Positions 5,884-21,604 of a stretch of DNA of 24,000 bases are shown in pieces. The first letter of the stretch is position 1; every line of letters begins with the position of its first letter. The translations under genes were made by a program, and so were the position numbers. Below the pieces are notes generated by a model. It made no database searches and had not been told where the DNA came from. It saw nothing but the letters and a program-made list of their open reading frames with translations. The stretch comes from Kitasatospora cinereorecta (lineage in GTDB: Bacteria; Actinomycetota; Actinomycetes; Streptomycetales; Streptomycetaceae), in NCBI RefSeq assembly GCF_042656125.1, contig NZ_JBHSOC010000006.1. One strand, 5' to 3'.

Positions 5884-7311
5884 TTGACCACCGACACAGC
5901 CACTCCGCCACGTTTCAGCGGCAGGCAGCGGTTGATTCTGCTCCTCCTGCTCGGCTCCGGCTTTCTGTTCGCCGCCGACTACTCGATCCTGAATGTCGCG
6001 TTGCCGAAGGTCGGGGCGGGCGTCGGGTTAGGCCTGACCGGGCTTCCCTGGATCGGTTCCGCGTACACGCTGCCCGCCGCCGGCTTCATGCTGATGTTCG
6101 GCCGCCTCGCCGACCTGTACGGCCGGCGCCGGATGTTCCTGGCCGGCATGGTCCTGCTGGCCGCCGCCTCGCTGCTCGGCGGCTTCGCCACCAACCCGAC
6201 GATGCTGCTGACCGCCCGCGCGCTGCAGGGCACCTCCACCGCGATGGCGCTGCCCGCGGCGCTGTCGCTGATCACCACCACCTTCAGCGAGGGCGGCCTG
6301 CGCGACCGCGCCCTCGGCCTGAACGGTGCCATCCTGTCCGGCGGGTTCACCGCCGGTGCGCTGGTCGGCGGCGCCCTGGTCAGCCTGCTGAGCTGGCGGG
6401 CCGGGTTCTTCATCAACGTCCCGTTCGCAGTCCTCATCCTGCTGATCGCCCCCGCGCTGGTCGGTGAGAGCCGGATCCCCGAGCGGGTGAAGGTCGACCT
6501 GCCGGGTGCGGTGACGGTGACCGGCGGTCTGCTGGCCGTGGTGTACGCCGTGGTCCAGAAGAACCTGATCGCGGCCGCCATCGGCGTGGTGCTGCTGGCC
6601 GCCTTCTGGCTGATCGAGGTGCGCTCGCCCGCGCCGCTCGCGCCGGTGCGCTTCCTCAAGCGGTCCACGGTCAAGTGGGGCAACTTCGCGGGGCTCGTGA
6701 CGTTCTCCATGGAGACCGGCATGATCTTCCTGATGACGCTCTACCTCCAGGACGTCCTTAAGTTCGCCCCGGTGGTCACCGGCCTCATCTTCGGTGTCCC
6801 CGGCCTCGCCGCGGTGTTCGCAGGACCGATCGCCGGACGCATCCTCGGCCGCTTCGACAGCCGGAAGGTCGTCACCCTGGGCCTGATCCTGCAGGCCCTG
6901 ATGATCCTGCCGCTGGTGTTCCTCGGGGACAGCAGGATGGCGCTCGCGGTGCTGATCCCGGCGCTGTTCCTGGGCTTCTTCGTGCACGTCACCGTCATCG
7001 TCTCGTACATGGTGATCGGCACCTCCGGCCTGCCGGACGAGGAGCAGGGCCTGGCGACCGGCCTGACCTCGCTGACCCAGCAGGTCGCCCTCACCGTCGG
7101 CGCCCCGATCATGGTCTCGATCGCCGCCACCCAGAGCTCCCAGCTCACCGGCACCCACCTCGCGCTGACCGTGAACGTGGCCGTGATCGTGGCCGGCGCC
7201 GTCCTCATCTGGTTTGGCCTCCGCCCGCGCGGGCAGGCCGCCACTGCGGGCGCGGCCACCGTTCCGGCGGCCAAGGGAAGTGCCGAAGACCTTGCCCCGT
7301 CGCTGGATTGA
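5884..7311 (+). CDS. MFS transporter (DHA2/EmrB-like drug:H+ antiporter type)
   Basis: TTG start with AAGGGA upstream. About 14 hydrophobic segments. MFS motif-A-like GRLADLYGRRRMFLAG follows the second helix. The gene starts 50 nt after the hydrolase stop, so the two are probably an operon. Confidence 0.85.
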   Translation: MTTDTATPPRFSGRQRLILLLLLGSGFLFAADYSILNVALPKVGAGVGLGLTGLPWIGSAYTLPAAGFMLMFGRLADLYGRRRMFLAGMVLLAAASLLGGFATNPTMLLTARALQGTSTAMALPAALSLITTTFSEGGLRDRALGLNGAILSGGFTAGALVGGALVSLLSWRAGFFINVPFAVLILLIAPALVGESRIPERVKVDLPGAVTVTGGLLAVVYAVVQKNLIAAAIGVVLLAAFWLIEVRSPAPLAPVRFLKRSTVKWGNFAGLVTFSMETGMIFLMTLYLQDVLKFAPVVTGLIFGVPGLAAVFAGPIAGRILGRFDSRKVVTLGLILQALMILPLVFLGDSRMALAVLIPALFLGFFVHVTVIVSYMVIGTSGLPDEEQGLATGLTSLTQQVALTVGAPIMVSIAATQSSQLTGTHLALTVNVAVIVAGAVLIWFGLRPRGQAATAGAATVPAAKGSAEDLAPSLD

Positions 7312-8086: not shown

Positions 8087-9280
8087 TCAGATGAACATCG
8101 TGTTGGGCTCCAGGCCGCACAGGACCCGGCCGTAGGTCTCGGTGTTGGAGTCCGGGCTGAACATCGGGTGCACGCTGATGGCGTGGAGGTCGCGGTGGAT
8201 GCGCTGGATCGGCTCGTGCTTGTAGATGGACGAGCCCCCGCTGGCCGAGGCGAAGATCTCCACGGCCTCCTTGGCCAGCTTGGTGGCCCAGCCCTCGTCG
8301 GCGCGGACCCGGGCCCGCTCCTCGATCGTCCAGGGCTCGCCGCTGGCCGCCTTGGCGTCCACCAGCGCCGCGGCGTGGTACGCGTGGTACTCCGCCTGCT
8401 CGGTCTTCATCACGGCGGTGCCGACCTGGATGTGGGTGACCGGCGCCTCGGCCTGGTGCTCGTAGTCGGTGTACCGGATCGGCCGTCCGGGCATCTTCTC
8501 GAAGAACGCCTCGCGGGCAGCCTTGGCCATGCCGACCAGGATGCCGACGGTGGCGGCGGAGCCGGCCAGGATGGTCGGGCTGCGCCAGATGGTGCCGTCC
8601 GCGTTCAGCTTCGACATGCTGTTCGGCCGGATCGCCGAGGCCAGCGGGATCATGTGGCTCTCCGGGACGAAGACGTCCTTGGCCACGGTGGTGACGCTAC
8701 CGCTGGCGGCCATGCCGGAGGTGTGCCAGTCGTCCACGATCTCCAGGCTCGACATCGGCACGGCCAGGATGACCGGCTCGGGCTCGGCGCCCGGCCGGAG
8801 CAGGATGGTGGCCAGCTCCTGCCAGTTGGAGTGCAGGGCGCCACTGACGAAGTGCCAGGAGCCGTTGAGCAGGTAGCCGCCCTCCACCGGTACGCACGCC
8901 CCGCTCGGGCTGACGGCGCCGCAGATCCGGACGTCCTCGGTGGTGAACACCTCCTCCTGGGCCTCGTCGGGGAACAGGCCGACGATCCACGAGGCGATCC
9001 AGTAGGTCGACATCGTCCAGGCCAGGGCGCCGTCCGCCCGGCCGAGATCGATGGCGACGTCCACCAGGGTCTTGGTGTCGGCCTCGTAGCCGCCGAACCG
9101 GGTCGGCATCCGCAGCTTGAAGATCCCCGCGTCGCGGAGGGCCCGGATGGAGTCCTCGTGGATGCGCCGGTTCTCCTCCGACCATGCCGCCTTCTCCCTG
9201 AGCACTGGCACCAACTCGGCCAGGGAGCTCTTCAGTTCTTCAATTGTCGGCTGATTCTGCGACGTTCCGGTGATCGACAC
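8087..9280 (-). CDS. Acyl-CoA-dehydrogenase-fold flavin-dependent monooxygenase (HsaA/HpaH-like oxygenase component)
   Basis: Track ORF 8087..9463 trimmed to the GTG at 9280 (VSITGTSQNQ...), which has AGGAGG 5 nt upstream. The layout LRDAGIFKLRMPTRFGGYE ... GGYLLNGSWHFVSGALHSNW ... PIQRIHRDLHAISVHPMF matches group-D ACAD-fold monooxygenases as I remember them (e.g. HsaA). No flavin reductase partner is present in the window. Confidence 0.8.
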   Translation of the reverse strand: MSITGTSQNQPTIEELKSSLAELVPVLREKAAWSEENRRIHEDSIRALRDAGIFKLRMPTRFGGYEADTKTLVDVAIDLGRADGALAWTMSTYWIASWIVGLFPDEAQEEVFTTEDVRICGAVSPSGACVPVEGGYLLNGSWHFVSGALHSNWQELATILLRPGAEPEPVILAVPMSSLEIVDDWHTSGMAASGSVTTVAKDVFVPESHMIPLASAIRPNSMSKLNADGTIWRSPTILAGSAATVGILVGMAKAAREAFFEKMPGRPIRYTDYEHQAEAPVTHIQVGTAVMKTEQAEYHAYHAAALVDAKAASGEPWTIEERARVRADEGWATKLAKEAVEIFASASGGSSIYKHEPIQRIHRDLHAISVHPMFSPDSNTETYGRVLCGLEPNTMFI

Positions 9281-9412
9281 CCTAGCCTCCTGAGGAAGAG
9301 CCGTGACGTGGATCGACAATCCCATTCGCGACCCGTGCGGGGCTTCTCCCGGATTGCCGGAGACGGGACGGCAGTGACGGGCCGGACCGGGGTATCCTCG
9401 CGCGATTCGTGC

Positions 9413-9463
9413 GCAACTCTTCGGTTGCTCTTCGGGCCTCCATGTGCAACCATGAAGTTGCAC
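9413..9463. promoter_or_regulatory. Two inverted repeats sharing GCAAC-N6-GTTGC half-sites upstream of the SRPBCC gene
   Basis: Site 1 is GCAAC-tcttcg-GTTGC (9413-9428). Site 2 is GTGCAAC-catgaa-GTTGCAC (9444-9463, perfect 7-bp arms). The centres are 33 bp apart. Site 2 ends 30 bp before ATG 9493. Confidence 0.5.
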
Positions 9464-9492
9464 CCCAAAACGGCGGCAACGAAAGAGGCATC

Positions 9493-9930
9493 ATGAGCGA
9501 GGAACTGATCGAGCGTGAGACCCTGATCGAGGCGTCCCTGGAGCGGGTCTGGTCCCTGGTGGCCGAGCCGGGCTTCTGGGTGGCCGACGAGGCGAGCCTG
9601 ACCGGCGCCGAGGCCAAGGAGGGCGACTCGATCATCGCGAAGAACGCCGAGTACGGCGACTTCCCGGTGCGGGTGGAGAAGGTCACCCCGCCGACCTACG
9701 TCGCGTACCGCTGGGTCACCGCCTTCCCGGGCGAGGAGCTGCGCGAGGACAACAGCACCCTCATCGAGTTCACCCTGACCGCCGAGGGCGACAAGACCCG
9801 CCTGCGCGTCGTCGAGAGCGGCTTCGCGGCCCTCCCGACCACCGAGGAGCGGCGCACCAAGACCCTGAGCGACAACGCCAGCGGCTGGCCGCAGGTGCTC
9901 GCGGCGCTCAAGACGCGCGCCGAGAAGTAG
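9493..9930 (+). CDS. SRPBCC-superfamily protein (Aha1/START-like)
   Basis: Track ORF 9409..9930 trimmed to ATG 9493 (AAGAGG upstream). LIEASLERVWSLVAEPGFW ... VAYRW ... STLIEFTL...GDKTRLRVVESGF ... GWPQVLAALK is the typical Aha1-like SRPBCC pattern. Confidence 0.75.
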   Translation: MSEELIERETLIEASLERVWSLVAEPGFWVADEASLTGAEAKEGDSIIAKNAEYGDFPVRVEKVTPPTYVAYRWVTAFPGEELREDNSTLIEFTLTAEGDKTRLRVVESGFAALPTTEERRTKTLSDNASGWPQVLAALKTRAEK

Positions 9931-12956: not shown

Positions 12957-13502
12957 ATGACGTCACTCGAGTTGCGCACCGCGCTCGCCCGGCCGTCCCA
13001 GGCCGAGCGGGACCAGGCGCTGGACGTGCTGCGCGACGGCGTCGGCAACGGCCGGCTCTCGCACGACACCTTCATCCGCCGGATGGAGCTCGTCCTCACC
13101 GCCCGCAGCCGCGCCGAACTCGCCGACGTCGTCTCCGACCTCCACACCTACGGCCGGGTCTCCCGGCTGCTGCTGCGCACCGTCGCCAGGGTGTCCGCGC
13201 TGAACGTCCGGCTGCGGCACACCTGGCAGGCCGAGCAGGTGCCGCGGCTGCGCCTGCCCGGACCGGGCGTCACCCGGCTGACCATCGGCCGGATGACCGG
13301 ATCCGACCTGCGGCTGGGCGACAGCACCGTCTCCCGCAACCACGCCGAACTGCGGTGGGAGAGCGGCGACTGGGTGCTGCACGACCTCGGCTCCAGCAAC
13401 GGCACCTACGTCAACGACCTGCGGGTGGCCGGCGCCGTGGTGGTCCGCCCCGGCGACCTCGTCCGCTTCGGCCGCCAGGCCTTCCACCTCACCGTCGACT
13501 GA
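12957..13502 (+). CDS. DUF1707-like N-terminal domain plus C-terminal FHA domain protein
   Basis: The N-terminus RPSQAERDQALDVLRDGVGNGRLSHDTFIRRMELVLTARSRAEL is DUF1707/SHOCT-like. The C-terminus LTIGRMTGSDLRLGDSTVSRNHAELRWESGDWVLHDLGSSNGTYVNDLRV has the FHA core residues G-R...S-R-x-H...S-x-N-G-T. Confidence 0.85.
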   Translation: MTSLELRTALARPSQAERDQALDVLRDGVGNGRLSHDTFIRRMELVLTARSRAELADVVSDLHTYGRVSRLLLRTVARVSALNVRLRHTWQAEQVPRLRLPGPGVTRLTIGRMTGSDLRLGDSTVSRNHAELRWESGDWVLHDLGSSNGTYVNDLRVAGAVVVRPGDLVRFGRQAFHLTVD

Positions 13503-13529
13503 CCGACGCCCGCTGCGGTACCACCGGCG

Positions 13530-14162
13530 TCAGTACGTCCGGCAGAGCCCGGCCGCGCCCGCGCCGGTGGCCGCCGCGAGCCGGAGCATCCGCAGCGGCC
13601 CGTCCAGCAGCTCGGCCGGATCGTAGCCGGGTGCGTCACCGGTCGCGGCGATCCAGTCGGTGATCCCGGCCAGCACCTCGGCCCGGCGCCGACCGGAGAG
13701 GTCGAGCACCCGCTCGGCGGCGGGCAGCGAGTCCCGTACCTCCTGCGCCGTCAGCAGGAAGTCGCCCAGCATCCCCGGCAGCTGCAGCGCGGCGTCGTGG
13801 CCGAGCGCGTAGCAGAGCGCGGTGGCCGGGTCGGCCTTGCGCAGCACGGCGGCGAAGTGGGTGCCGGCCTGCTCGACGAGGTTCAGGCACGCCTCGCGCA
13901 GGGCCTCGGCAGCCGGTGTCTCCGGGTGGGCGGAGCGGACGAGCGCGGCGAAGCGCTCCGCGGCGCGCGTGGCGTGGACCCGGCCCCCGGAGTCGTGTTC
14001 GAGCATGGGTTCGCCACCCTCCGCCCACCACCGCAGGGAGTCGCCGAGATCACGCGAGGGCCCTCCGGTGCCCGGTTCCCACAGGTGGAGGAAGCGGAAC
14101 GGCAGGTCACGCGCCTCGGCGTCGGGAATCGGGCCGATCAGCCACAGTCCGGTCCAGCTCAT
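13530..14162 (-). CDS. Hypothetical protein (no recognisable family)
   Basis: Track ORF 13530..14198 starts at a TTG. I prefer the in-frame ATG at 14162 (MSWTGLWLIG...), but both starts have weak RBS. GC3-rich coding-like composition. Divergent from the toxin operon. Confidence 0.45.
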   Translation of the reverse strand: MSWTGLWLIGPIPDAEARDLPFRFLHLWEPGTGGPSRDLGDSLRWWAEGGEPMLEHDSGGRVHATRAAERFAALVRSAHPETPAAEALREACLNLVEQAGTHFAAVLRKADPATALCYALGHDAALQLPGMLGDFLLTAQEVRDSLPAAERVLDLSGRRRAEVLAGITDWIAATGDAPGYDPAELLDGPLRMLRLAAATGAGAAGLCRTY

Positions 14163-14280
14163 GGTCCCGAGTCTGGGACTGGTGGCGGACGACGGCAACC
14201 GCGTACCGTCATGAGGCGTCGTTAGCTTGTACTACCGATCCGTATTCTGGCGGTACGTCTGTGCGCGAGGGGGCACACTC

Positions 14281-15006
14281 ATGGCGATCGAACTGCCCGA
14301 CGAAGTGGTGTCGTTCCTCTCCGTCATCGGCATCAACTGGCCGACCGTGAACGAGGACAGCGTGCGGGAGTTCGCCTCCCACGTCCGGGAGTTCGCCGAG
14401 AACGTCGAGTCGGCGCACCAGGACTCCACCGCCACGATCCAGAAGCTGGGCGAGGCGTACGAGGGCGCGTCCTACGAGGCGCTGCTCGCCAAGTGGGCCC
14501 AGCTCTCCGACTCGCACATGAACGAGCTGGTCCAGGCCTGCCACGTGGTGGCCACCGCGCTGGACGTGGCCGCCGACGTGATCGTCGCCATGAAGGTCGA
14601 GACGATCGCCGAGCTGGTCGCGCTGGCCGCCGCGTTCATCGCCGACCAGGCGGCCGCCGTGGCCACCCTCGGCGCCGCCGAGGCGGCCGTCATCCTCATC
14701 GAGGAGGCGGCGAAGCGGTTGATCAACTACCTGGAGCAGCAGCTGGAGCAGTACATCATCGGCCAGGTGGTGACGGCCGCGATCGACCCGCTGGTGGAGG
14801 TCGTGGCGAACGCCGTCTCCGGGCTGGTGTTCCAGGCCGCCGAGGCCGCCCTCGGGGTGGACGGCGGCGGGGGCGGCGGCACCGGATTCCGGATCGACCC
14901 GGAGGCGCTGGAGGCCCACGCGCAGATGATGCACGACCACGCGGAGACCGTGGCCGGCCACGCGCAGACGTTCCAGGCCAAGGCGGCGGGGGTGAGCTTC
15001 GAATGA
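14281..15006 (+). CDS. WXG100-like / putative T7SS-signal-type helical protein (toxin trafficking module encoded as a separate ORF)
   Basis: Track ORF 14227..15006 trimmed to ATG 14281 (GAGGGGG upstream). The N-terminus MAIELPDEVVSFLSVIGINWPTVNEDSVREFASHVREFAENVE...LGEAYEGASYEALLAKW resembles the N-terminal helix-turn-helix domain of actinobacterial polymorphic toxins, with YEG in the WxG position. It is followed by Ala-rich amphipathic/hydrophobic helices, a G6 linker and a second helical segment FRIDPEALEAHAQMMHDHAETVAGHAQTF. Confidence 0.65.
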   Translation: MAIELPDEVVSFLSVIGINWPTVNEDSVREFASHVREFAENVESAHQDSTATIQKLGEAYEGASYEALLAKWAQLSDSHMNELVQACHVVATALDVAADVIVAMKVETIAELVALAAAFIADQAAAVATLGAAEAAVILIEEAAKRLINYLEQQLEQYIIGQVVTAAIDPLVEVVANAVSGLVFQAAEAALGVDGGGGGGTGFRIDPEALEAHAQMMHDHAETVAGHAQTFQAKAAGVSFE

Positions 15007-15995
15007 CCAACCAGATCGTGAAGGCGCTGGAAGAGGGCGCCCAGAAGATCGGCAAGACCCTCGCCGAGGACGCCGGCAAGGCCGTCAAGGACCTCTACCA
15101 CTCGGCCGGCGACAACCTGAAGAAGGTCGCCCACAACACCCGCGAGGCCGACCGCCACCACGAGGGCGAACTCAAGCGGATCCTCGGCGGCGGCTCCAAG
15201 AACGGCCCGCACGGCCCCGGCACCCCGCGCAGCCCGCACGGCCCGGCGGGCGAGGGCGGCAAGAAGAAGTACTTCATCCACGACGACGGCCGCGTCCAGG
15301 AGCTGCGCAACGGCAAGCTCCACGACCTGGACCCCAAGGACGGGTCCGGCATCCACACGCTGCTCGACTCCTCGAAGAAGGACCACGTCAAGGACCCGAC
15401 CGAGAAGGACATGCGGTCGACCTACCACGCCCGCAAGAACAAGAAGAACCCGAGCGAGAAGGTCTCCAGCGAGAAGATCGACTCGCCGACCGAGCTGTCC
15501 CACGCGGTCGAGGAGGCCCGCCGCGCCAAGGGCGACTACGGCGGCACCAACTACGCCTCCCTGCACTACAAGGACGCCGACGGCAAGGAGTTCGTGCTGG
15601 TCGGGCAGAGCGGCGACCTGCGCAGCCACTCCGAACGCTCGATCGGCAAGCCGCTGCTCGGCGGGCGCGAGGGCAACGTCCAGGAGCTGTACACCGAACG
15701 GGCGCCCTGCCAGAAGGACGCCAACTGCGAACGCTGGCTGGCCAGGCACTTCGAACCGCACAACGACGACATGAAGGTCAGCCACGGCGTCGACTACAAC
15801 AGCAGCCTCCCCAAGGAGGAGCGCGACTGGGGCCACAAGGCCTACCTCGACCAGCTCAAGCAGGACCACGCGGCCGGCAGCCACGGCGGCACCATGGGCT
15901 CCCACGACTTCGACGCGAAGGGGCAGGAGAACATGGAAGCCGCCGAGGCCAGGCGGCAGGAACGGGCCGCCAAGCGGGCCCGCAAGGGTCTGTAG
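15003..15995 (+). CDS. Polymorphic-toxin-type protein with a C-terminal zinc-dependent nucleic-acid deaminase domain (SCP1.201/DddA-like or YwqJ-like clade)
   Basis: ATG 15003 overlaps the upstream stop (ATGA, 15003-15006). The first 170 codons of track ORF 14493..15995 are an out-of-frame overlap with the previous gene. The protein has a helical N-terminus, a Gly/Pro linker, and a Lys-rich middle. The C-terminus reads YASLHYKDADGKEFVLVGQSGDLRSHSERSIGK...ELYTERAPCQKDANCERWLARHF, i.e. HxE (15627-15635) and PCx5C (15705-15728), the deaminase zinc/catalytic signature. Confidence 0.65.
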   Translation: MTNQIVKALEEGAQKIGKTLAEDAGKAVKDLYHSAGDNLKKVAHNTREADRHHEGELKRILGGGSKNGPHGPGTPRSPHGPAGEGGKKKYFIHDDGRVQELRNGKLHDLDPKDGSGIHTLLDSSKKDHVKDPTEKDMRSTYHARKNKKNPSEKVSSEKIDSPTELSHAVEEARRAKGDYGGTNYASLHYKDADGKEFVLVGQSGDLRSHSERSIGKPLLGGREGNVQELYTERAPCQKDANCERWLARHFEPHNDDMKVSHGVDYNSSLPKEERDWGHKAYLDQLKQDHAAGSHGGTMGSHDFDAKGQENMEAAEARRQERAAKRARKGL

Positions 15996-16027
15996 AGTCC
16001 ATGGCGCCGGAAGCGGAGGAGTGACGG

Positions 16028-16591
16028 ATGCTGGTGCAGATCGACTGGAGCGTGGTCTCCGGGGAACACGTCCCGGCGGGCGGGATGCTGCGGCTCCGCA
16101 AGGAGGCGGCGGCCCGGATCTGGTCCGACGAGGACGCGGCGCGGTTCGCCGTCGAGGTCGGCGTGCCGCACTCGAACGGCCTCTTCCGGATCGTCGCCGA
16201 ACTGGCCGAACGCGACCCGGCGAGCCCCGACTGGGCCTTCGTCGAGCCGTACGAGGGCGGCCGGGTCGACACCCCGCACGGACCGCTCCAGCAACTCGGC
16301 GAGGTCTACCAGTCGCTGGTGTACGTCCACCACGGCGACGGCACGGTCTGGATCTCCGACCCGGACTCCGAGGTCGAGTACGAGCTGGTCCACCGGGACC
16401 TGTCCTCGTTCGCGTACCTGGTCTACAAGATCGCCGCGGAGAAGCCCCGCCCCGAGGAGGACCCCGACCCGTTCGACTGGGCCGACGCCGAGGAGATCAT
16501 CCGCGAGGACACCACCGCCTGGGACCCGCTGCCCTTCGAGAGCGGCGCCCACTTCTGGGAGATGTACCTGGAGTCCTACCCGATGCTCTGA
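16028..16591 (+). CDS. SUKH-4-like immunity protein candidate
   Basis: GGAGGAG RBS, starting 32 nt after the toxin stop. An acidic 187-aa protein. The core DGTVWISDPDSEVEYELVHRDLSSFAYLVYKI ... AWDPLPFESGAHFWEMYLESY aligns by eye with the N-terminal domain of the next gene (GAEFYLAPDRTVRAVLLGVDVPEMPVSSGLDRFAAGLLLL ... LDPWAFEEREAWWPRVLDDL) and with my recollection of SUKH-4 proteins. Confidence 0.55.
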   Translation: MLVQIDWSVVSGEHVPAGGMLRLRKEAAARIWSDEDAARFAVEVGVPHSNGLFRIVAELAERDPASPDWAFVEPYEGGRVDTPHGPLQQLGEVYQSLVYVHHGDGTVWISDPDSEVEYELVHRDLSSFAYLVYKIAAEKPRPEEDPDPFDWADAEEIIREDTTAWDPLPFESGAHFWEMYLESYPML

Positions 16592-16724
16592 GCCGCGGCG
16601 CGGACCTGGTCGGACGCGAGGGCACGGCGGCCCGGGACCCGCTGCCCCGCGGCGGTGGGGGCGGTTCCGGGCGGGGTACCTTGAGGACAATCCGATGCTC
16701 TGGTGAAGGGACGAGTGCGCGCTG

Positions 16725-17558
16725 ATGAGTGATGACCTTTCCGCCGCGCTGGTGGCGCACTTCGGCGAGCGCGGCCTGCGAAGCCTGGAGTTCGCGCCCG
16801 AGGGGCCGCTGCGCAGCCCCGGGCTGCCGCTGCAGGTGGGGCCGTACTTCTTCGCGGCCGAGGCGTCGGATCCGCTGTCGCTCGGCCAGTACGCGGCCGG
16901 GCTCGGGACCGACGCCGGGCCGATGGCCGGTCAGCTGCGGATCGGGACGGACCGGGGCGCGGAGTTCTACCTGGCGCCGGACCGTACGGTGCGGGCCGTG
17001 CTGCTGGGGGTGGACGTCCCCGAGATGCCGGTCAGCTCCGGCCTGGACAGGTTCGCCGCCGGGCTGCTGCTGCTCGACCGGAACCTGCCCGCGCTGGCCT
17101 CGGCCGACGCTGACGACGCGTTCGCCGCGTACCTGCGGCTGCGGCAGGGGCTGCTGGAGCTGGACCCGTGGGCGTTCGAGGAGCGGGAGGCGTGGTGGCC
17201 GCGGGTGCTGGACGACCTGCGGCGGCCGCTGAACGTGGCGTCCTCGGCGGCGTTCGAGTACCTCGACGCGCAGGGGGCCAAGCAGATCGCGACCGAGTTC
17301 GGCGGGCCGGGCCTGCCGCACCCGGAGGAGCTGCTGTGGCACCGCCTGCGCGCGGAGGGCGTTGAACCCGAGCAGGTCACCGCGGTGTACTGCGAGCTGG
17401 AGCCGTGCCTGATGCCGGGTCACTACTGCGCGCTGTGGCTGGCGCAGACCTTCCCGGAGGCCGCGTTCACCCACCGCTTCGACTACGGCGAGAGCGCGGA
17501 GTCCCGGGAGGACGGGATCAAGGCGCTCATGATCAGCTTGGCCGAGCAGCAGAGCTGA
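16725..17558 (+). CDS. SUKH-4-like domain fused to a deaminase domain paralogous to the upstream toxin
   Basis: Residues 1-165 are SUKH-4-like (see previous entry). Residues ~170-260 read AFEYLDAQGAKQIATEFGGPGLPHPEELLWHRL...AVYCELEPCLMPGHYCALWLAQTF...HRFDYG. They align position-for-position with the toxin's SLHYKDADGKEFVLVGQSGDLRSHSERSIG...ELYTERAPCQKDANCERWLARHF...HGVDYN. HxE is at 17319-17327 and PCx6C at 17403-17429. Confidence 0.65.
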   Translation: MSDDLSAALVAHFGERGLRSLEFAPEGPLRSPGLPLQVGPYFFAAEASDPLSLGQYAAGLGTDAGPMAGQLRIGTDRGAEFYLAPDRTVRAVLLGVDVPEMPVSSGLDRFAAGLLLLDRNLPALASADADDAFAAYLRLRQGLLELDPWAFEEREAWWPRVLDDLRRPLNVASSAAFEYLDAQGAKQIATEFGGPGLPHPEELLWHRLRAEGVEPEQVTAVYCELEPCLMPGHYCALWLAQTFPEAAFTHRFDYGESAESREDGIKALMISLAEQQS

Positions 17559-17645
17559 GCGGTCGGGGCCGAGCGGCCGGGCCGAGCAGGCAGACGAGAA
17601 CGACGAGCGCGGCGGGACGGCCGTACGGCGGGGGAGGGCGTGAGC

Positions 17646-19436
17646 ATGACTGAGGGCGGGTGGCGGATTCCGGCGCTGGGAGCCGGGCGGCGACCGGCGG
17701 GTCTGGCGCTCTTCGGATGGCTGGACGACCCACGGGCACCCCGGCTGTGCCGGGTGGCGGGCTCCGCGGGGTCGGGCAAGTCGCACCTGCTGGCGTGGCT
17801 GGTGCAGGCCGGGACGACCGAGGAGACTCCGGGCGACCGGCGGGTGCACGCGGTGCTGCCGGCGGCCGGGGCGAGCCTGCGGGCCGTGGTCTGGTCGCTG
17901 GGGCAGCAGTTGGGCGTGGTGGCGCACCGGCCCGGGCCGCTGCTGGAGGTGCTGGCCGCCGACGAGCGGCGCACCGTGCTGTGCGTGCCCGAGCTCGACC
18001 TCGCCGCCGAACCGCAGCGGCTGGTCGAGGAACTGCTCGACCCGATGCTGCGCCTGCCGCACGTCCGGCTGGTGGTGGAGGCCGCCACCGGCGGCGCTGC
18101 CGCGTCGGCGTTCACGGCGGTCGCGGACCCGGCCGTGCTCGACCTGGACGAGCCGCAGTGGACCGACCGGGAGCGCTTCGCCGCCTGGGCCGCCACCGCG
18201 GGCGCCGACCCGGAGGGCTTCCCGCACCCCGGCCGGTCGCTCGGCCGGGCCGCGCCGCCGCCCCCGGCGAGCGCACCGGAGCTGATCGCCCTGGTCGCCC
18301 GCACCCCCGAGGGCAAGCTCGACCTGCGTGCGGCCGGCGAGGACCTGCTCACCGAACTGTGGACCGCCGCCGCCCGGATCGGCGACCTCGGCCCGCTGGC
18401 CGCCGACCCGCTGCTCTGGGCGCTGGCCCGGCCGGTCGCCGTGACGGCCGCCGTCGAGGGCCGCGACGACGCCCTGGCCCGGCCGTGGGACGCGGTCGGC
18501 CCCGCCCTGGCCGAGGAGCCCGACCCGGCGGTGCGCGCCGCCGTGCTGCGCACCCGGCTGCTGGGCACCGACCCCGCCGCGGCGGCCGCACTGCCCACCA
18601 CCGGCGGCCGCTGGGTCGCCCGCTGGGCGCAGTGGTCGGACGGCCGGACGGACCCGGTGGCCGCGGTCGGCGCACTCACCGTCGGCGCCGGCGAGTACGT
18701 CGCGCAGCTGCTGGTGACCGACCCGACCGGTGCGGTGCGCACCCTGGACGCCGCCACCGGCCGCCGGCTCGGCACCGTGGTGCTGCCCGCGCCGCGGCCG
18801 TGGCGCGGGCTCGCGGTCACCTCGGCCGGCGCCGTGGTGCTGCTCGACGGGTACGGCGGCGCCGAACTGGTGGCGCCGACCGAGCAGCGGCCCGGACTGG
18901 AGCCGTACGCGCTCCAGGAGGCGCTGGACGAGATCGCCGCCGAGGCGGCCGAACTCACCGCGGTGGCCGCCGTCGGCCGGCTCCCGAAGGCCGCGCCGGC
19001 CTTCGGCGACGCGGCCGGGGTGGTGCACTGGTACCAGGACGGCCTGGTGGAGAGCGAGCGGCTGCACCGCGGCGCGGTCACCGCCCTCGCCGGTACGGCG
19101 CTGGCCGCCGAGGGCCGGGCCGACCCGGAGATCCCGCTGCTGGCCAGCGGTGGCCTGGACGGCGCGGTGCGCCTGTGGGGCCCCGGCACCGTGCCCATGA
19201 ACCAGCCGATCGACCTGCACCCCCACCCGGTCACCGCGGTGGCGGTCGGCACCACGGCGGCCGGGCCGGTGGTGGCCGCCGCCTGGGCCGACGGGCTGGT
19301 CCGGCTGCGCCACCTGAACGGCGACACCGACGTCCTCGACCTGCGGGTCGGCCCGGAGGTGCACGCCCTGGCGATGGTCGGCAACCTGCTGGTGGTCGGC
19401 ACCCCGGACGGCGTCGCCGCGATCGACACCCACTGA
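17646..19436 (+). CDS. P-loop NTPase (STAND/NACHT-like) with C-terminal WD40-type beta-propeller repeats
   Basis: I prefer ATG 17646 (GGAGG 8 nt upstream) over GTG 17640. Walker A is GSAGSGKS (17760-17783) and a Walker-B-like RTVLCVPELD follows. An Ala/Pro-rich helical middle comes next. The C-terminal repeats include a canonical WD unit HRGAVTALAG...PLLASGGLDGAVRLWGP, then HPHPVTAVAV...AAAWADGLVRLRHL and VHALAMVGNLLVVGTPDGVAAIDTH. Confidence 0.7.
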   Translation: MTEGGWRIPALGAGRRPAGLALFGWLDDPRAPRLCRVAGSAGSGKSHLLAWLVQAGTTEETPGDRRVHAVLPAAGASLRAVVWSLGQQLGVVAHRPGPLLEVLAADERRTVLCVPELDLAAEPQRLVEELLDPMLRLPHVRLVVEAATGGAAASAFTAVADPAVLDLDEPQWTDRERFAAWAATAGADPEGFPHPGRSLGRAAPPPPASAPELIALVARTPEGKLDLRAAGEDLLTELWTAAARIGDLGPLAADPLLWALARPVAVTAAVEGRDDALARPWDAVGPALAEEPDPAVRAAVLRTRLLGTDPAAAAALPTTGGRWVARWAQWSDGRTDPVAAVGALTVGAGEYVAQLLVTDPTGAVRTLDAATGRRLGTVVLPAPRPWRGLAVTSAGAVVLLDGYGGAELVAPTEQRPGLEPYALQEALDEIAAEAAELTAVAAVGRLPKAAPAFGDAAGVVHWYQDGLVESERLHRGAVTALAGTALAAEGRADPEIPLLASGGLDGAVRLWGPGTVPMNQPIDLHPHPVTAVAVGTTAAGPVVAAAWADGLVRLRHLNGDTDVLDLRVGPEVHALAMVGNLLVVGTPDGVAAIDTH

Positions 19437-19492
19437 CGCCCCCGGACGGGAGGCTCCGACCGGCGTGGTCCGCCGATCCGTGCGATGATCGA

Positions 19493-19506
19493 AAAGAATT
19501 TTCTTT
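19493..19506. promoter_or_regulatory. AT-rich inverted repeat AAAGAA-TT-TTCTTT upstream of marR (candidate operator/promoter element)
   Basis: This is the lowest-GC stretch of the window (19485-19535: gatgatcgaaaagaattttctttagcgagagtaatgacataggctaaggacc). 6-bp arms with a 2-bp spacer. A TAGGCT -10-like hexamer and an AAGGA RBS follow before ATG 19536. Confidence 0.35.
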
Positions 19507-19535
19507 AGCGAGAGTAATGACATAGGCTAAGGACC

Positions 19536-19970
19536 ATGCCCGAGATGTCCGAGGACGACCTGGCGGCCATCAGCCAGCTCAGATCGTCCGCGATGCGCCT
19601 CGCCCGCCGGTTGCGACACCAGCGGGTCGAGGAGTCGCTGAGCCCCACCGAAATGGGGGTGCTCGGCACGCTTGCCCGCTGCGGCAGAGCCACGCCTGGC
19701 GAACTCGCCAGGAAGGAGCACGTCCAGCCGCCGTCGATGACCAGAATCATCGCGATGCTGGAGGAGAAGGGACTGGTACGGCGCGAGCCGCACCCCGAGG
19801 ACCGCCGACAGGTGGTCGTCAGCAGTACCGAGCAGGCGGAGACGATCCTCAACGAGAGTCGCCGCCGACGGAACGCCTGGCTGGCCGAACTGGCCGAAGG
19901 GCTCACCGACGAGGAGTGGGCCGTCCTGCGCGACGCCGCCCCCGTGCTCTACAAGCTCGCCCACCTCTGA
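19536..19970 (+). CDS. MarR-family transcriptional regulator
   Basis: LSPTEMGVLGTLARCGRATPGELARKEHVQPPSMTRIIAMLEEKGLVRREPHPEDRRQVVVSST is the canonical MarR winged-helix with the DRR wing motif. Confidence 0.9.
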   Translation: MPEMSEDDLAAISQLRSSAMRLARRLRHQRVEESLSPTEMGVLGTLARCGRATPGELARKEHVQPPSMTRIIAMLEEKGLVRREPHPEDRRQVVVSSTEQAETILNESRRRRNAWLAELAEGLTDEEWAVLRDAAPVLYKLAHL

Positions 19971-20113
19971 GCCCGCCCCACCGGCGGGCTCGCCTCCGGC
20001 CAGGACAGTTTCGGGAACGTCAGAAGGAGTACCGCATCACCGCAGGCCCGACAGCAGAAACACGCAGCGCGGCGGCAGCACGGAGTGCCGCCGCGCGCCG
20101 AGGGGAGACCACC

Positions 20114-21604
20114 GTGACACCGCCGGCCGCAGCCGTTGCCGCCGCCAACCGCACCTACGACTCCACCACCGAGCCGGCAGCATCCACCGCTGCCACCGCC
20201 GAGAGCCAGGCGCCCGCCCCCGTGGGCCTGCCCGGCACCGGCGACGACGACCCCGACGAACGCACCGCGGCGGCCCGACCCGCCGCTCCGACGGGTGGCA
20301 GGTTCACCCGCCCCGGAGGAATGTTCTCCTCCCTCCGGATCCGCAACTACCGCTACTACTTCGCCGGCCAGGTGGTCTCCAACACCGGCACCTGGATGCA
20401 GCGCATCGCCCAGGACTGGCTGGTCCTGAGCCTGACCGGCAGCCCCTTCGCCGTCGGCGTCACCACCGCCATGCAGTTCCTCCCGATGCTGCTGCTCGGC
20501 CTGTGGGGCGGCGTCCTCGCCGACCGCCTGCCCAAGCGGCGCCTGCTGGTCGCCACCCAGGGCGCCATGGGCCTGCTCGCCGCCGGACTCGCCGTACTGA
20601 CCGTCACCGGCCTGGTCACCGCCGGCCACGTGTACGTCTTCGCCCTGTTGCTCGGCCTGGTCACGGTGGTCGACAACCCGACCCGGCAGGCCTTCGTCAG
20701 CGAGATGGTGCCCGGCAAGGACCTGGCCAACGCCGTCAGCCTGAACGCCGCCAACTTCCAGACCGCCCGGCTCGTCGGCCCCGCCGTCGCCGGCCTGCTG
20801 ATCGCCGCCGTCGGCAGCGGCTGGGCCTTCGCCGTCAACGCGCTGTCCTTCGCCGCCGTCATCGGCGGACTGCTCGCCATGCGGGAGAGCGAACTGCGGC
20901 CTACTGCGCCGATCGCGCGCAGCAAGGGCCAGCTGCGCGACGGCCTGCGGTACGTCAAGGAACGCCCCGAACTGCTCTGGCCGATGGTCCTGGCCGGCTT
21001 CATCGGCACCTTCGGGTTCAACTTCCCCACCCTGCTCGCCGGCTTCGCCCACGACACCTTCAAGGTCGGCGCGGGCGAGTACGGGCTGCTCAACACCGCG
21101 ATGGCGGTCGGCTCGCTGGCCGGCGCCCTGCTCGCCGCCCGGCGCGGGGCCCCGCGCATGCGGGGACTGGTCGGCGCCGCGATCGCCTTCGGCGCGCTGG
21201 AGGTGCTCGCCGCGTTCGCGCCCGGGTACTGGACCTTCGCGATCCTGCTCACCCTGATCGGCGTGTTCGGGCTGACCTTCAACACCTCCGTCAACTCGGC
21301 GCTGCAACTCGCCACCGACCCCGAGATGCGGGGACGGGTGATGGGACTGCTGGTACTCGTCTTCACCGGCGGCACCCCGATCGGCGCCCCCGTCGTCGGC
21401 TGGGTCACCGCCACCTACGGACCCCGCTTCGGCCTGCTCGCCTGCGGCCTCGTCTCCGCCGCGGCCGCCGGTACCGTCGCGCTCGTCCTCGCCCGCGCGG
21501 CCGACCTGCGACTCGCCTTCGACCGCCACCCGGCACGCCGCGGACGGGTCTTCGCCGTCGTCCCGCGCCACGCCAACCCGAGCGCGCTGGCCCAGGCCTG
21601 CTAG
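20114..21604 (+). CDS. MFS transporter (EntS/MFS_3-like)
   Basis: Track ORF 19916..21604 overlaps marR. I prefer GTG 20114 (GGGGAG 6 nt upstream); ATG 20321 (MFSSLRIRNYRYYFAGQ...) is the alternative. LRIRNYRYYFAGQVVSNTGTWMQRIAQDWLVL is the typical N-terminus of this MFS subfamily, and there are about 12 hydrophobic segments. The Ala/Pro/Thr-rich leader is low complexity if translated. Confidence 0.85.
   Translation: MTPPAAAVAAANRTYDSTTEPAASTAATAESQAPAPVGLPGTGDDDPDERTAAARPAAPTGGRFTRPGGMFSSLRIRNYRYYFAGQVVSNTGTWMQRIAQDWLVLSLTGSPFAVGVTTAMQFLPMLLLGLWGGVLADRLPKRRLLVATQGAMGLLAAGLAVLTVTGLVTAGHVYVFALLLGLVTVVDNPTRQAFVSEMVPGKDLANAVSLNAANFQTARLVGPAVAGLLIAAVGSGWAFAVNALSFAAVIGGLLAMRESELRPTAPIARSKGQLRDGLRYVKERPELLWPMVLAGFIGTFGFNFPTLLAGFAHDTFKVGAGEYGLLNTAMAVGSLAGALLAARRGAPRMRGLVGAAIAFGALEVLAAFAPGYWTFAILLTLIGVFGLTFNTSVNSALQLATDPEMRGRVMGLLVLVFTGGTPIGAPVVGWVTATYGPRFGLLACGLVSAAAAGTVALVLARAADLRLAFDRHPARRGRVFAVVPRHANPSALAQAC

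Follow-up and report, generated by a model that had tools for sequence, protein, structure and literature searches.

Why should a bacterium that encodes a secreted-type deaminase toxin and a stand-alone immunity protein also carry the same two kinds of domain joined in a single chain? The question is raised by a 24,000-nucleotide stretch of DNA from Kitasatospora cinereorecta (contig NZ_JBHSOC010000006.1 of assembly GCF_042656125.1; hereafter ‘the window’), whose G+C content of 0.68–0.80 is that of a high-GC actinobacterial chromosome. The gene at issue, here called F, runs on the plus strand from an ATG at 16725 to a stop at 17558 and encodes a protein of 277 amino acids (aa); its third-codon-position G+C of 0.96 is typical for real genes of this genome, and the closest database protein, P0001 of Kitasatospora paracochleata, is 99% identical. 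On the 5′ side of F lie the genes for a WXG100-like protein of the type VII secretion system (T7SS) type (W), for the toxin (T) and for the stand-alone immunity protein (S), and on its 3′ side the gene for a P-loop NTPase (N). The immunity-type domain concerned, SUKH-4, has been predicted to be the immunity partner of the XOO_2897 deaminase clade (Iyer et al. 2011, PMC3239186), and SUKH domains have been noted to be fused to toxins ‘on occasions’, an observation that was left without interpretation (Zhang et al. 2012, PMC3482391). Database annotation already places both domains on F-type proteins; what was known before is therefore the domain architecture of F, and what is new is the cassette to which F belongs and the logic of that cassette. 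Indeed, no description of a conserved F family, of its coupling to an Apaf-1-like NTPase, of the four- to five-gene mobile cassette or of the occurrence of the two domains in both orders was found in the literature searched.

The C-terminal half of F is matched by the Pfam family PF14440 (XOO_2897-deam) over residues 173–269, with a score of 85.5 bits (cut-off 27), and the same family matches T at residues 180–266 (approximately nt 15540–15800; E 1.2e-11). A preliminary description of the window had likened residues ~170–260 of F to the toxin C-terminus by eye, on the basis of three short segments. Formal alignment bears this out: BLASTP aligns residues 175–277 of F with residues 185–290 of T at 28% identity over 109 columns (E 2e-5), placing all three segments in the register originally given, and profile–profile comparison of the F-family and T-family deaminases using hhalign returns a probability of 98.5% over 83 columns (E 3.9e-15). 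The same description held that the His, Cys and Cys zinc ligands and the catalytic Glu are retained, and all of these active-site residues are indeed kept in F, as the HxE motif H199-P-E201 (nt 17319–17327) and the zinc motif P227-C228-x6-C235 (C228 at nt 17406–17408, C235 at nt 17427–17429); T carries the corresponding HSE...PC-x5-C, with the HSE starting from nt 15627. Equivalents of H199, E201, C228 and C235 were found in every one of the 120 best homologues, and the full pattern HxE...PC-x6-C in 116 of the 120, the remaining four differing solely by a Pro to Ala change ahead of the first Cys. Across the F-family alignments, HPE(E) and C-E-L-E-(P/A)-C-x6-C are invariant or nearly so.

Iyer et al. 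(2011; PMC3239186, Table 1), who place the XOO_2897 clade in the Helix-4 division, give two marks of it: the fold is truncated after helix 4, which leaves strand 5 absent, and the insert that links strand 3 to helix 3 has a conserved Glu. Both can be recognized in F. The hallmark Glu is kept within C-E224-L-E226-P-C, and in the AlphaFold2 model the deaminase half consists of four strands and three helices (strand 1, 174–180; strand 2, 186–192; helix, 200–210; strand 3, 218–225; helix, 235–242; strand 4, 247–252; helix, 258–275), the fifth strand being absent. When the C-terminal half of the model was compared with the PDB using Foldseek, the matches comprised APOBEC3H (E 2.4e-3, probability 1.00), APOBEC1, AID, APOBEC3A, APOBEC2 and DddA, in agreement with a deaminase fold closest to that of AID/APOBEC; the E-values are modest because only ~100 of the 277 residues align. 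A profile search of PDB sequences did not find a solved relative. When assayed with a reporter, members of the XOO_2897 clade deaminated cytidine in single-stranded DNA (ssDNA; bioRxiv 10.1101/2023.05.21.541555). Judged from sequence, F carries a complete cytidine-deaminase domain of this clade with its zinc-binding and catalytic residues intact.

The N-terminal half of F is matched by the Pfam family PF14435 (SUKH-4) over residues 28–164, with 49.2 bits against a cut-off of 25.5, and the presence of an immunity-type domain and a deaminase in one open reading frame (ORF), as had been claimed, is thus supported by two matches above the Pfam cut-offs. The resemblance of this half to S that had also been claimed was recovered by profiles and not by pairwise comparison: BLASTP of the F N-terminus against S gave an unconvincing alignment that was out of register (E 0.004), whereas hhalign aligned the SUKH-4 domain of F with the S family end to end over 159 columns with a probability of 98.1% (E 6.9e-14). 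A jackhmmer search seeded with S recovers F ORFs too. The SUKH-4 domain closes with a junction helix, RE(S/A)WWPRVLDD, that is invariant or nearly so across the family, and the linker between the two domains is three residues long. Invariant residues of the SUKH-4 half that are specific to F comprise Y41-F42, R72, D76 and W157-W158. An AlphaFold2 model of F built with 111 homologues reached a mean predicted local distance difference test (pLDDT) of 94.7 and a predicted template modelling score (pTM) of 0.91, the latter value indicating a defined mutual orientation of the two domains. No WXG, LXG or T7SS-signal domain was found on F using Pfam. F is accordingly predicted to be a cytoplasmic two-domain protein, made of a full-length SUKH-4 immunity-type domain followed by a deaminase domain. 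The order of immunity domain and then toxin domain is, as first described, unlike the layout of orphan toxin tips, and the possibility that F is itself an orphan toxin tip was rejected, given that its immunity domain is N-terminal and fused, that it has no trafficking domain and that it forms a conserved set of orthologues.

How old and how widespread is this architecture? A protein search yielded 184 protein clusters for F, with both Pfam domains present on all 120 of those listed, and in a genome scan that took one genome per species, relatives of F turned up in 275 genomes, from Kitasatospora, Streptomyces, Embleya and allied genera. When representative sequences, clustered at 50% identity, were searched exhaustively, 21 clusters scored E ≤ 1e-30, and most of these are full-length F-type proteins; beyond them only the deaminase domain is matched, at the C-termini of toxins of varied length. 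No homologue of F was found in 50,697 phage records. Across genera, members of the family share 48–77% identity. The ratio of non-synonymous to synonymous substitution (dN/dS), calculated by the method of Nei and Gojobori (NG86), is 0.30 for the deaminase half versus 0.52 for the SUKH-4 half, values that are approximate because dS is ~0.8. Both domains are thus estimated to be under purifying selection, with the deaminase half the more constrained. Taken together, these comparisons place F in an old, conserved family restricted to the Streptomycetaceae.

The deaminase of F had been described as an intact paralogue of that of T, which stands in so far as both belong to the same Pfam family, and needs refinement as to age. 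Among 80 related loci, to which the counts of linked genes given below also refer, 68 contain both an F-type and a T-type deaminase, the T motifs being intact. When the deaminase domains are compared pairwise, F proteins share on average 70% identity with one another, T proteins 50%, and F and T 25% (never more than 35%), and F and T from the same locus are no closer to each other than are pairs from different loci, without sign of homogenization within loci. F is therefore an old, family-level paralogue of T; a recent duplication of the neighbouring T gene was rejected as its origin, the F and T deaminases forming two old clades. The F deaminase is nearer to the C-terminal deaminases of other toxins (40–45%) than to that of T, and by these identities it evolves more slowly than the T deaminase. 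The composition of the T gene is odd for the genome, with a G+C content of ~0.68 and an AT skew of up to +0.47, because its sequence is rich in Lys, Glu and Asp; this composition suggests an evolutionary history unlike that of its neighbours.

The context in which F is found recurs to a degree that makes F one gene of a mobile cassette that also contains W/T, S and N. In 75 of the 80 loci the gene directly 3′ of F, with the same orientation, is N, at a median estimated gap of about 21 nt, and in the Streptomyces loci L075 and L088 the two genes overlap by 4 nt. T, together with its immunity gene, is linked to F on the same strand in 72 loci, in a gene order that is permuted, and W is linked to F in 70. 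In Kitasatospora and Embleya the order is W-T-S-F-N, with T upstream of F, and in Streptomyces it is F-N-(W+T)-S, with T downstream; S, when traced using jackhmmer, follows T in nearly all loci as one to three tandem copies. W and T are joined as a single 520-aa polypeptide in Streptomyces (L075, 8594–10156) and are encoded by two overlapping ORFs in Kitasatospora (with a 4-nt overlap, ATGA, in the window), so the T7SS toxin W/T was evidently split, or fused, between the genera.

Mobility of the cassette is apparent both on plasmids and in duplicated copies. In an independent plasmid collection F was found on four large Streptomyces plasmids, each time with N and T within a few kb. The circular 137-kb plasmid NZ_CP054921.1 carries a complete F-N-toxin-SUKH-4 cassette (L088, 100121–105176), flanked by a resolvase gene upstream and by a tyrosine recombinase/integrase gene directly downstream. 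K. paracochleata has a second, strongly diverged cassette between purL/DUF3152 and DUF3151/fba (L081, 4383–9776), in which W2-T2-S2-F2 lie on one strand and N2 is divergently transcribed. Compared with their counterparts in the window, W2 shows 31% identity, T2 and F2 43% each and N2 59%, and S2 was not detected against the S of the window by BLASTP at E 1e-3. The equivalent site in K. atroaurantiaca (L082) holds two N paralogues and no W, T, S or F. Solitary F genes, with no N or toxin gene within 6 kb, were seen in loci L042, L045, L060 and L077 (around 6001–6850); they keep the H-E-C-C signature and have housekeeping neighbours (ubiD/ubiA/ubiX-like genes and others), and the copy in L077 has Thr at the position of Cys223 of F, which is not a zinc ligand.

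The most constant partner of F is N, whose Pfam matches are weak (NACHT, AAA_22 and WD40). It begins ~35 residues before a Walker A motif, GSAGSGKS, at approximately residues 41–48. An AlphaFold2 model of N (pLDDT 92.9, pTM 0.90) gave full-length Apaf-1 (3shf; E 1.5e-12) as its top Foldseek match in the PDB, followed by WD40 propellers, and N is predicted from this model to be an Apaf-1-like STAND NTPase with a C-terminal repeat sensor architecture. An N-terminal effector or adaptor domain is absent from N, and for an Apaf-1-like protein that lacks one a separately encoded effector is to be expected. An amyloid-type signalling motif common to the N-terminus of N and the C-terminus of F was also considered, and no such similarity was seen in a check by eye. 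PADLOC assigned none of F, T, S and W to a family, nor did NCBIfam assign F, T or S, and both matched N at the P-loop level alone. N-like NTPases of 875–909 aa were seen in addition beside T7SS-signal and ADP-ribosyltransferase toxin genes (L084, 8001–13490; L085, 2263–11885), at loci that also hold two ADP-ribosylglycohydrolase genes and an ARPP-2 gene, and NTPases of this family seem to accompany T7SS toxin loci of actinobacteria in general. The features of the cassette in the window are listed in Table 1.

Table 1. The W-T-S-F-N cassette in the window, by feature, coordinates (nt), strand and assignment.
W	14281..15006	+	WXG100-like (T7SS-type) helical protein; Pfam WXG100_2 E 6e-14, WXG100 E 1.2e-12; NCBIfam TIGR03930 E 1.1e-9
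T	15003..15995	+	Secreted-type toxin, 330 aa: N-terminal helical region, C-terminal XOO_2897 deaminase
S	16028..16591	+	Stand-alone SUKH-4 immunity protein, 187 aa, directly 3′ of T; Pfam PF14435 E 1.8e-21
F residues 1–170	16725..17234	+	SUKH-4 immunity-type domain; Pfam PF14435 E 8.6e-13
F residues 171–277	17235..17558	+	XOO_2897-type deaminase domain; Pfam PF14440 E 2.9e-24
N	17640..19436	+	Predicted Apaf-1-like STAND P-loop NTPase, then helical domain, then WD40 beta-propeller

F is not the sole type of protein in which the two domains are joined. Other Streptomycetaceae proteins carry a deaminase of the same subfamily fused in the reverse order, as X-XOO_2897 deaminase-SUKH-4. These comprise P0262, P0269, P0275, P0280, P0283, P0284, P0305, P0340, P0363 and P0375, from Streptomyces, Kitasatospora and Mangrovactinospora, some of which have N-terminal regions that are Mrr_cat/NACHT-associated inactive REase-like or made of collagen repeats. 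The catalytic motif is kept in six of the ten, the Glu is replaced by Ala in one, and His and Cys are lost in three; two divergent F-type representatives, P0255 and P0266, are likewise without the catalytic Glu. Fusion of the deaminase to SUKH-4 in both chain orders would be expected of two domains that bind each other in a physical complex. Beside one reverse-order fusion (locus L087, 6003–6998 and 4553–5657), a WHH/colicin-DNase nuclease and an SMI1_KNR4 (SUKH-1) immunity domain are joined in one ORF, and the same locus has a YwqJ-deaminase/SUKH-3 gene pair; joining of toxin and immunity domains seems to be more widespread in Streptomyces. At another locus (L086) a uracil-DNA glycosylase gene (8960–9751) lies two genes 3′ of a deaminase-SUKH-4 fusion, which may be a coincidence or may reflect a partner that repairs C-to-U damage; the genes upstream encode a 1778-aa protein without a Pfam match and a 907-aa protein with a SUKH-4 domain.

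What, then, might F do? We tentatively read it as a cytoplasmic deaminase that its own SUKH-4 domain curbs in cis and that acts as latent effector in an F–N pair whose trigger is related to toxin traffic, and would give this reading as a whole a little less than an even chance. The SUKH-4 domain would bind the deaminase of the same chain and hold it inactive (immunity in cis), and such inhibition would allow the cell to harbour an ssDNA cytidine deaminase that would be toxic or mutagenic if left unchecked. N would detect a signal through its WD40 propeller, oligomerize as other STAND NTPases do, and recruit or unlock F. The constant linkage to a T7SS toxin/immunity pair suggests that this signal relates to the traffic of T7SS deaminase toxins, and it could be either the arrival of a toxin from non-kin or a failure in the export of the cell's own. 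Given the ssDNA cytidine deamination known for the XOO_2897 clade, the deaminase of F, once freed, would mutate or kill the cell, and the outcome would be DNA deamination in the affected hyphal compartment (killing or hypermutation).

Several observations weigh against the latent-effector reading. In PADLOC, N is matched at the P-loop level alone and by no known defence-system model. N-like NTPases are found, too, beside ADP-ribosyltransferase toxins of the T7SS where no F-like gene is present, so N may serve the toxin or its secretion and not F; some relatives of N moreover carry the T7SS-associated domain NF033532, at either the C- or the N-terminus. F is found without N or T nearby in five of the 80 loci. 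Finally, catalytic residues have been lost from P0255, from P0266 and from several of the reverse-order fusions, and catalysis is therefore dispensable in the wider group.

The main rival is that F is chiefly an immunity factor against T or T-like toxins, in which the deaminase acts as a pseudo-ligand, bait or stabilizer, with its catalysis incidental, and in which N monitors or recycles the bait. Many members of the F family are labelled ‘SUKH-4 family immunity protein’ by NCBI, F is always co-oriented with T-S, and the extra tandem copies of S that are often present point to selection for more immunity; those fusion proteins that have lost catalytic residues have kept the fusion nonetheless. 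A bait should, however, tolerate loss of its active site, yet members of the F family proper never vary in the Glu or the zinc ligands, and constraint is stronger on their deaminase half than on their SUKH-4 half; moreover, a SUKH-4 domain that is already occupied in cis would make a poor immunity protein in trans. We regard this role as unlikely, whilst treating it as the chief competitor of the latent-effector reading.

A variant that joins elements of both is somewhat more doubtful still. Here F–N would be a toxin-triggered, NLR-like module for self-destruction or hypermutation in filamentous actinobacteria, in which the SUKH-4 domain baits a T7SS deaminase toxin, capture of the toxin frees the deaminase of F, and N senses the change and assembles the effector. 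The baited toxin would be an incoming one or the cell's own that could not be exported. If true, this would be innate immunity directed against interbacterial toxins, not phages, and derived from a domesticated toxin–immunity pair.

That F should be a second secreted toxin, riding on the W/T T7SS substrate with SUKH-4 as a built-in chaperone or immunity domain that is stripped at export (possibly by N), we consider very improbable. F does share an operon-like cassette with a T7SS toxin, and a T7SS-associated domain is attached to N-like NTPases, which are present in other T7SS toxin loci. F has none of the WXG100, LXG, T7SS-signal or helical secretion domains, however; it is conserved and not polymorphic, it is solitary in some genomes, and a covalently attached immunity domain would travel into the target and keep the toxin off. 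No better placed is the proposal that F is a housekeeping or regulatory editor of nucleic acid (for example of tRNA or DNA), with SUKH-4 co-opted for binding of a substrate or partner and the linkage to toxins being historical. Its conservation across genera and its position among housekeeping genes in five of the 80 loci would suit such a role, against which stand its patchy distribution, its presence on plasmids and in duplicated cassettes, its movement with integrase/resolvase genes, a dN/dS of 0.3–0.5 that is high for a gene of this kind, and its tight co-occurrence with N and T. Orphan cassettes do build up at polymorphic toxin loci, and SUKH–toxin fusions have been noted on occasion (PMC3482391). 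That F has no function of its own, having arisen from an immunity gene and an orphan toxin cassette as an accidental fusion, a decaying remnant or an assembly/frameshift artefact, is nevertheless effectively refuted by the full-length architecture kept in 275 species genomes and 184 protein clusters with an invariant domain junction, by purifying selection and by the confident two-domain model of F.

The reading of F as a latent effector curbed in cis can be set beside several known systems. Polymorphic toxins (PMC3239186; PMC3113570; PMC3482391) employ the same two domain families in the same predicted toxin–immunity pairing, and a canonical T7SS-type example, W/T with S, adjoins F in the window. 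F differs from them in that it has no trafficking domain, has a covalent N-terminal immunity domain, belongs to a conserved family and is coupled to an Apaf-1-like NTPase. CapRel(SJ46) likewise combines a toxin and its neutralizing domain in one chain, an analogy that suggests autoinhibition relieved by a trigger; its RelA-SpoT and pseudo-ZFD folds are nevertheless not homologous to the deaminase and SUKH domains of F, and F has a dedicated NTPase partner. N shares with Avs, bNACHT and Apaf-1 a STAND NTPase with a C-terminal repeat sensor architecture but has no fused N-terminal effector or adaptor domain, the candidate effector F being encoded by a separate, upstream and translationally coupled gene; moreover, the cassette is tied to a T7SS toxin locus and not to known defence islands. 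DddA/DddI and SsdA have in common with F a zinc-dependent cytidine deaminase fold, which in them serves as an antibacterial toxin and is neutralized by a cognate immunity protein. They belong, however, to the SCP1.201/BaDTF clade, are delivered by the type VI secretion system and have separate, non-SUKH immunity proteins, whereas F belongs to the XOO_2897 clade.

The pairing of SUKH-4 with XOO_2897 deaminases has until now been based on gene neighbourhood alone, and F serves as a ‘Rosetta stone’ for it. If its deaminase is active and curbed in cis, F provides a switchable enzyme from nature that acts on cytidine, with ~100 residues and a relationship to AID/APOBEC, which is of direct interest for base editors, and the latent-effector reading, if true, would show the domestication of a toxin–immunity pair into a latent intracellular effector. 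The constant linkage of F to the effector-less N and to a T7SS toxin points to an undescribed tie through which multicellular bacteria would couple NLR-type sensing to the traffic of interbacterial toxins, a link made testable by a four-gene cassette that is already carried on plasmids.

Some minor features of the locus concern its transcription and its limits. Within the 133-nt spacer between S and F (16592–16724) lies an imperfect inverted repeat rich in GC, ccgctgccccgcggcggtgggggcgg, which lacks a T tract and may be an attenuator or terminator that divides the T-S and F-N transcription units. A promoter/terminator scan of 13400–19700 returned no match, such scans being unreliable for high-GC actinobacteria. 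The database orthologue of N (P0121) begins two codons later than the ORF listed here, at nt 17646. The remaining genes of the window are ordinary, and no T7SS machinery was seen within it. On the 5′ side of the cassette lie genes for a DUF1707-FHA protein (plus strand, 12957–13502) and for a 222-aa protein without a family match (minus strand, 13530–14198), neither of which is kept beside the cassette in other genomes. On the 3′ side, genes for a MarR protein and an MFS transporter (19536–21604) are kept in 15 Kitasatospora loci and thereby mark the boundaries of the cassette.

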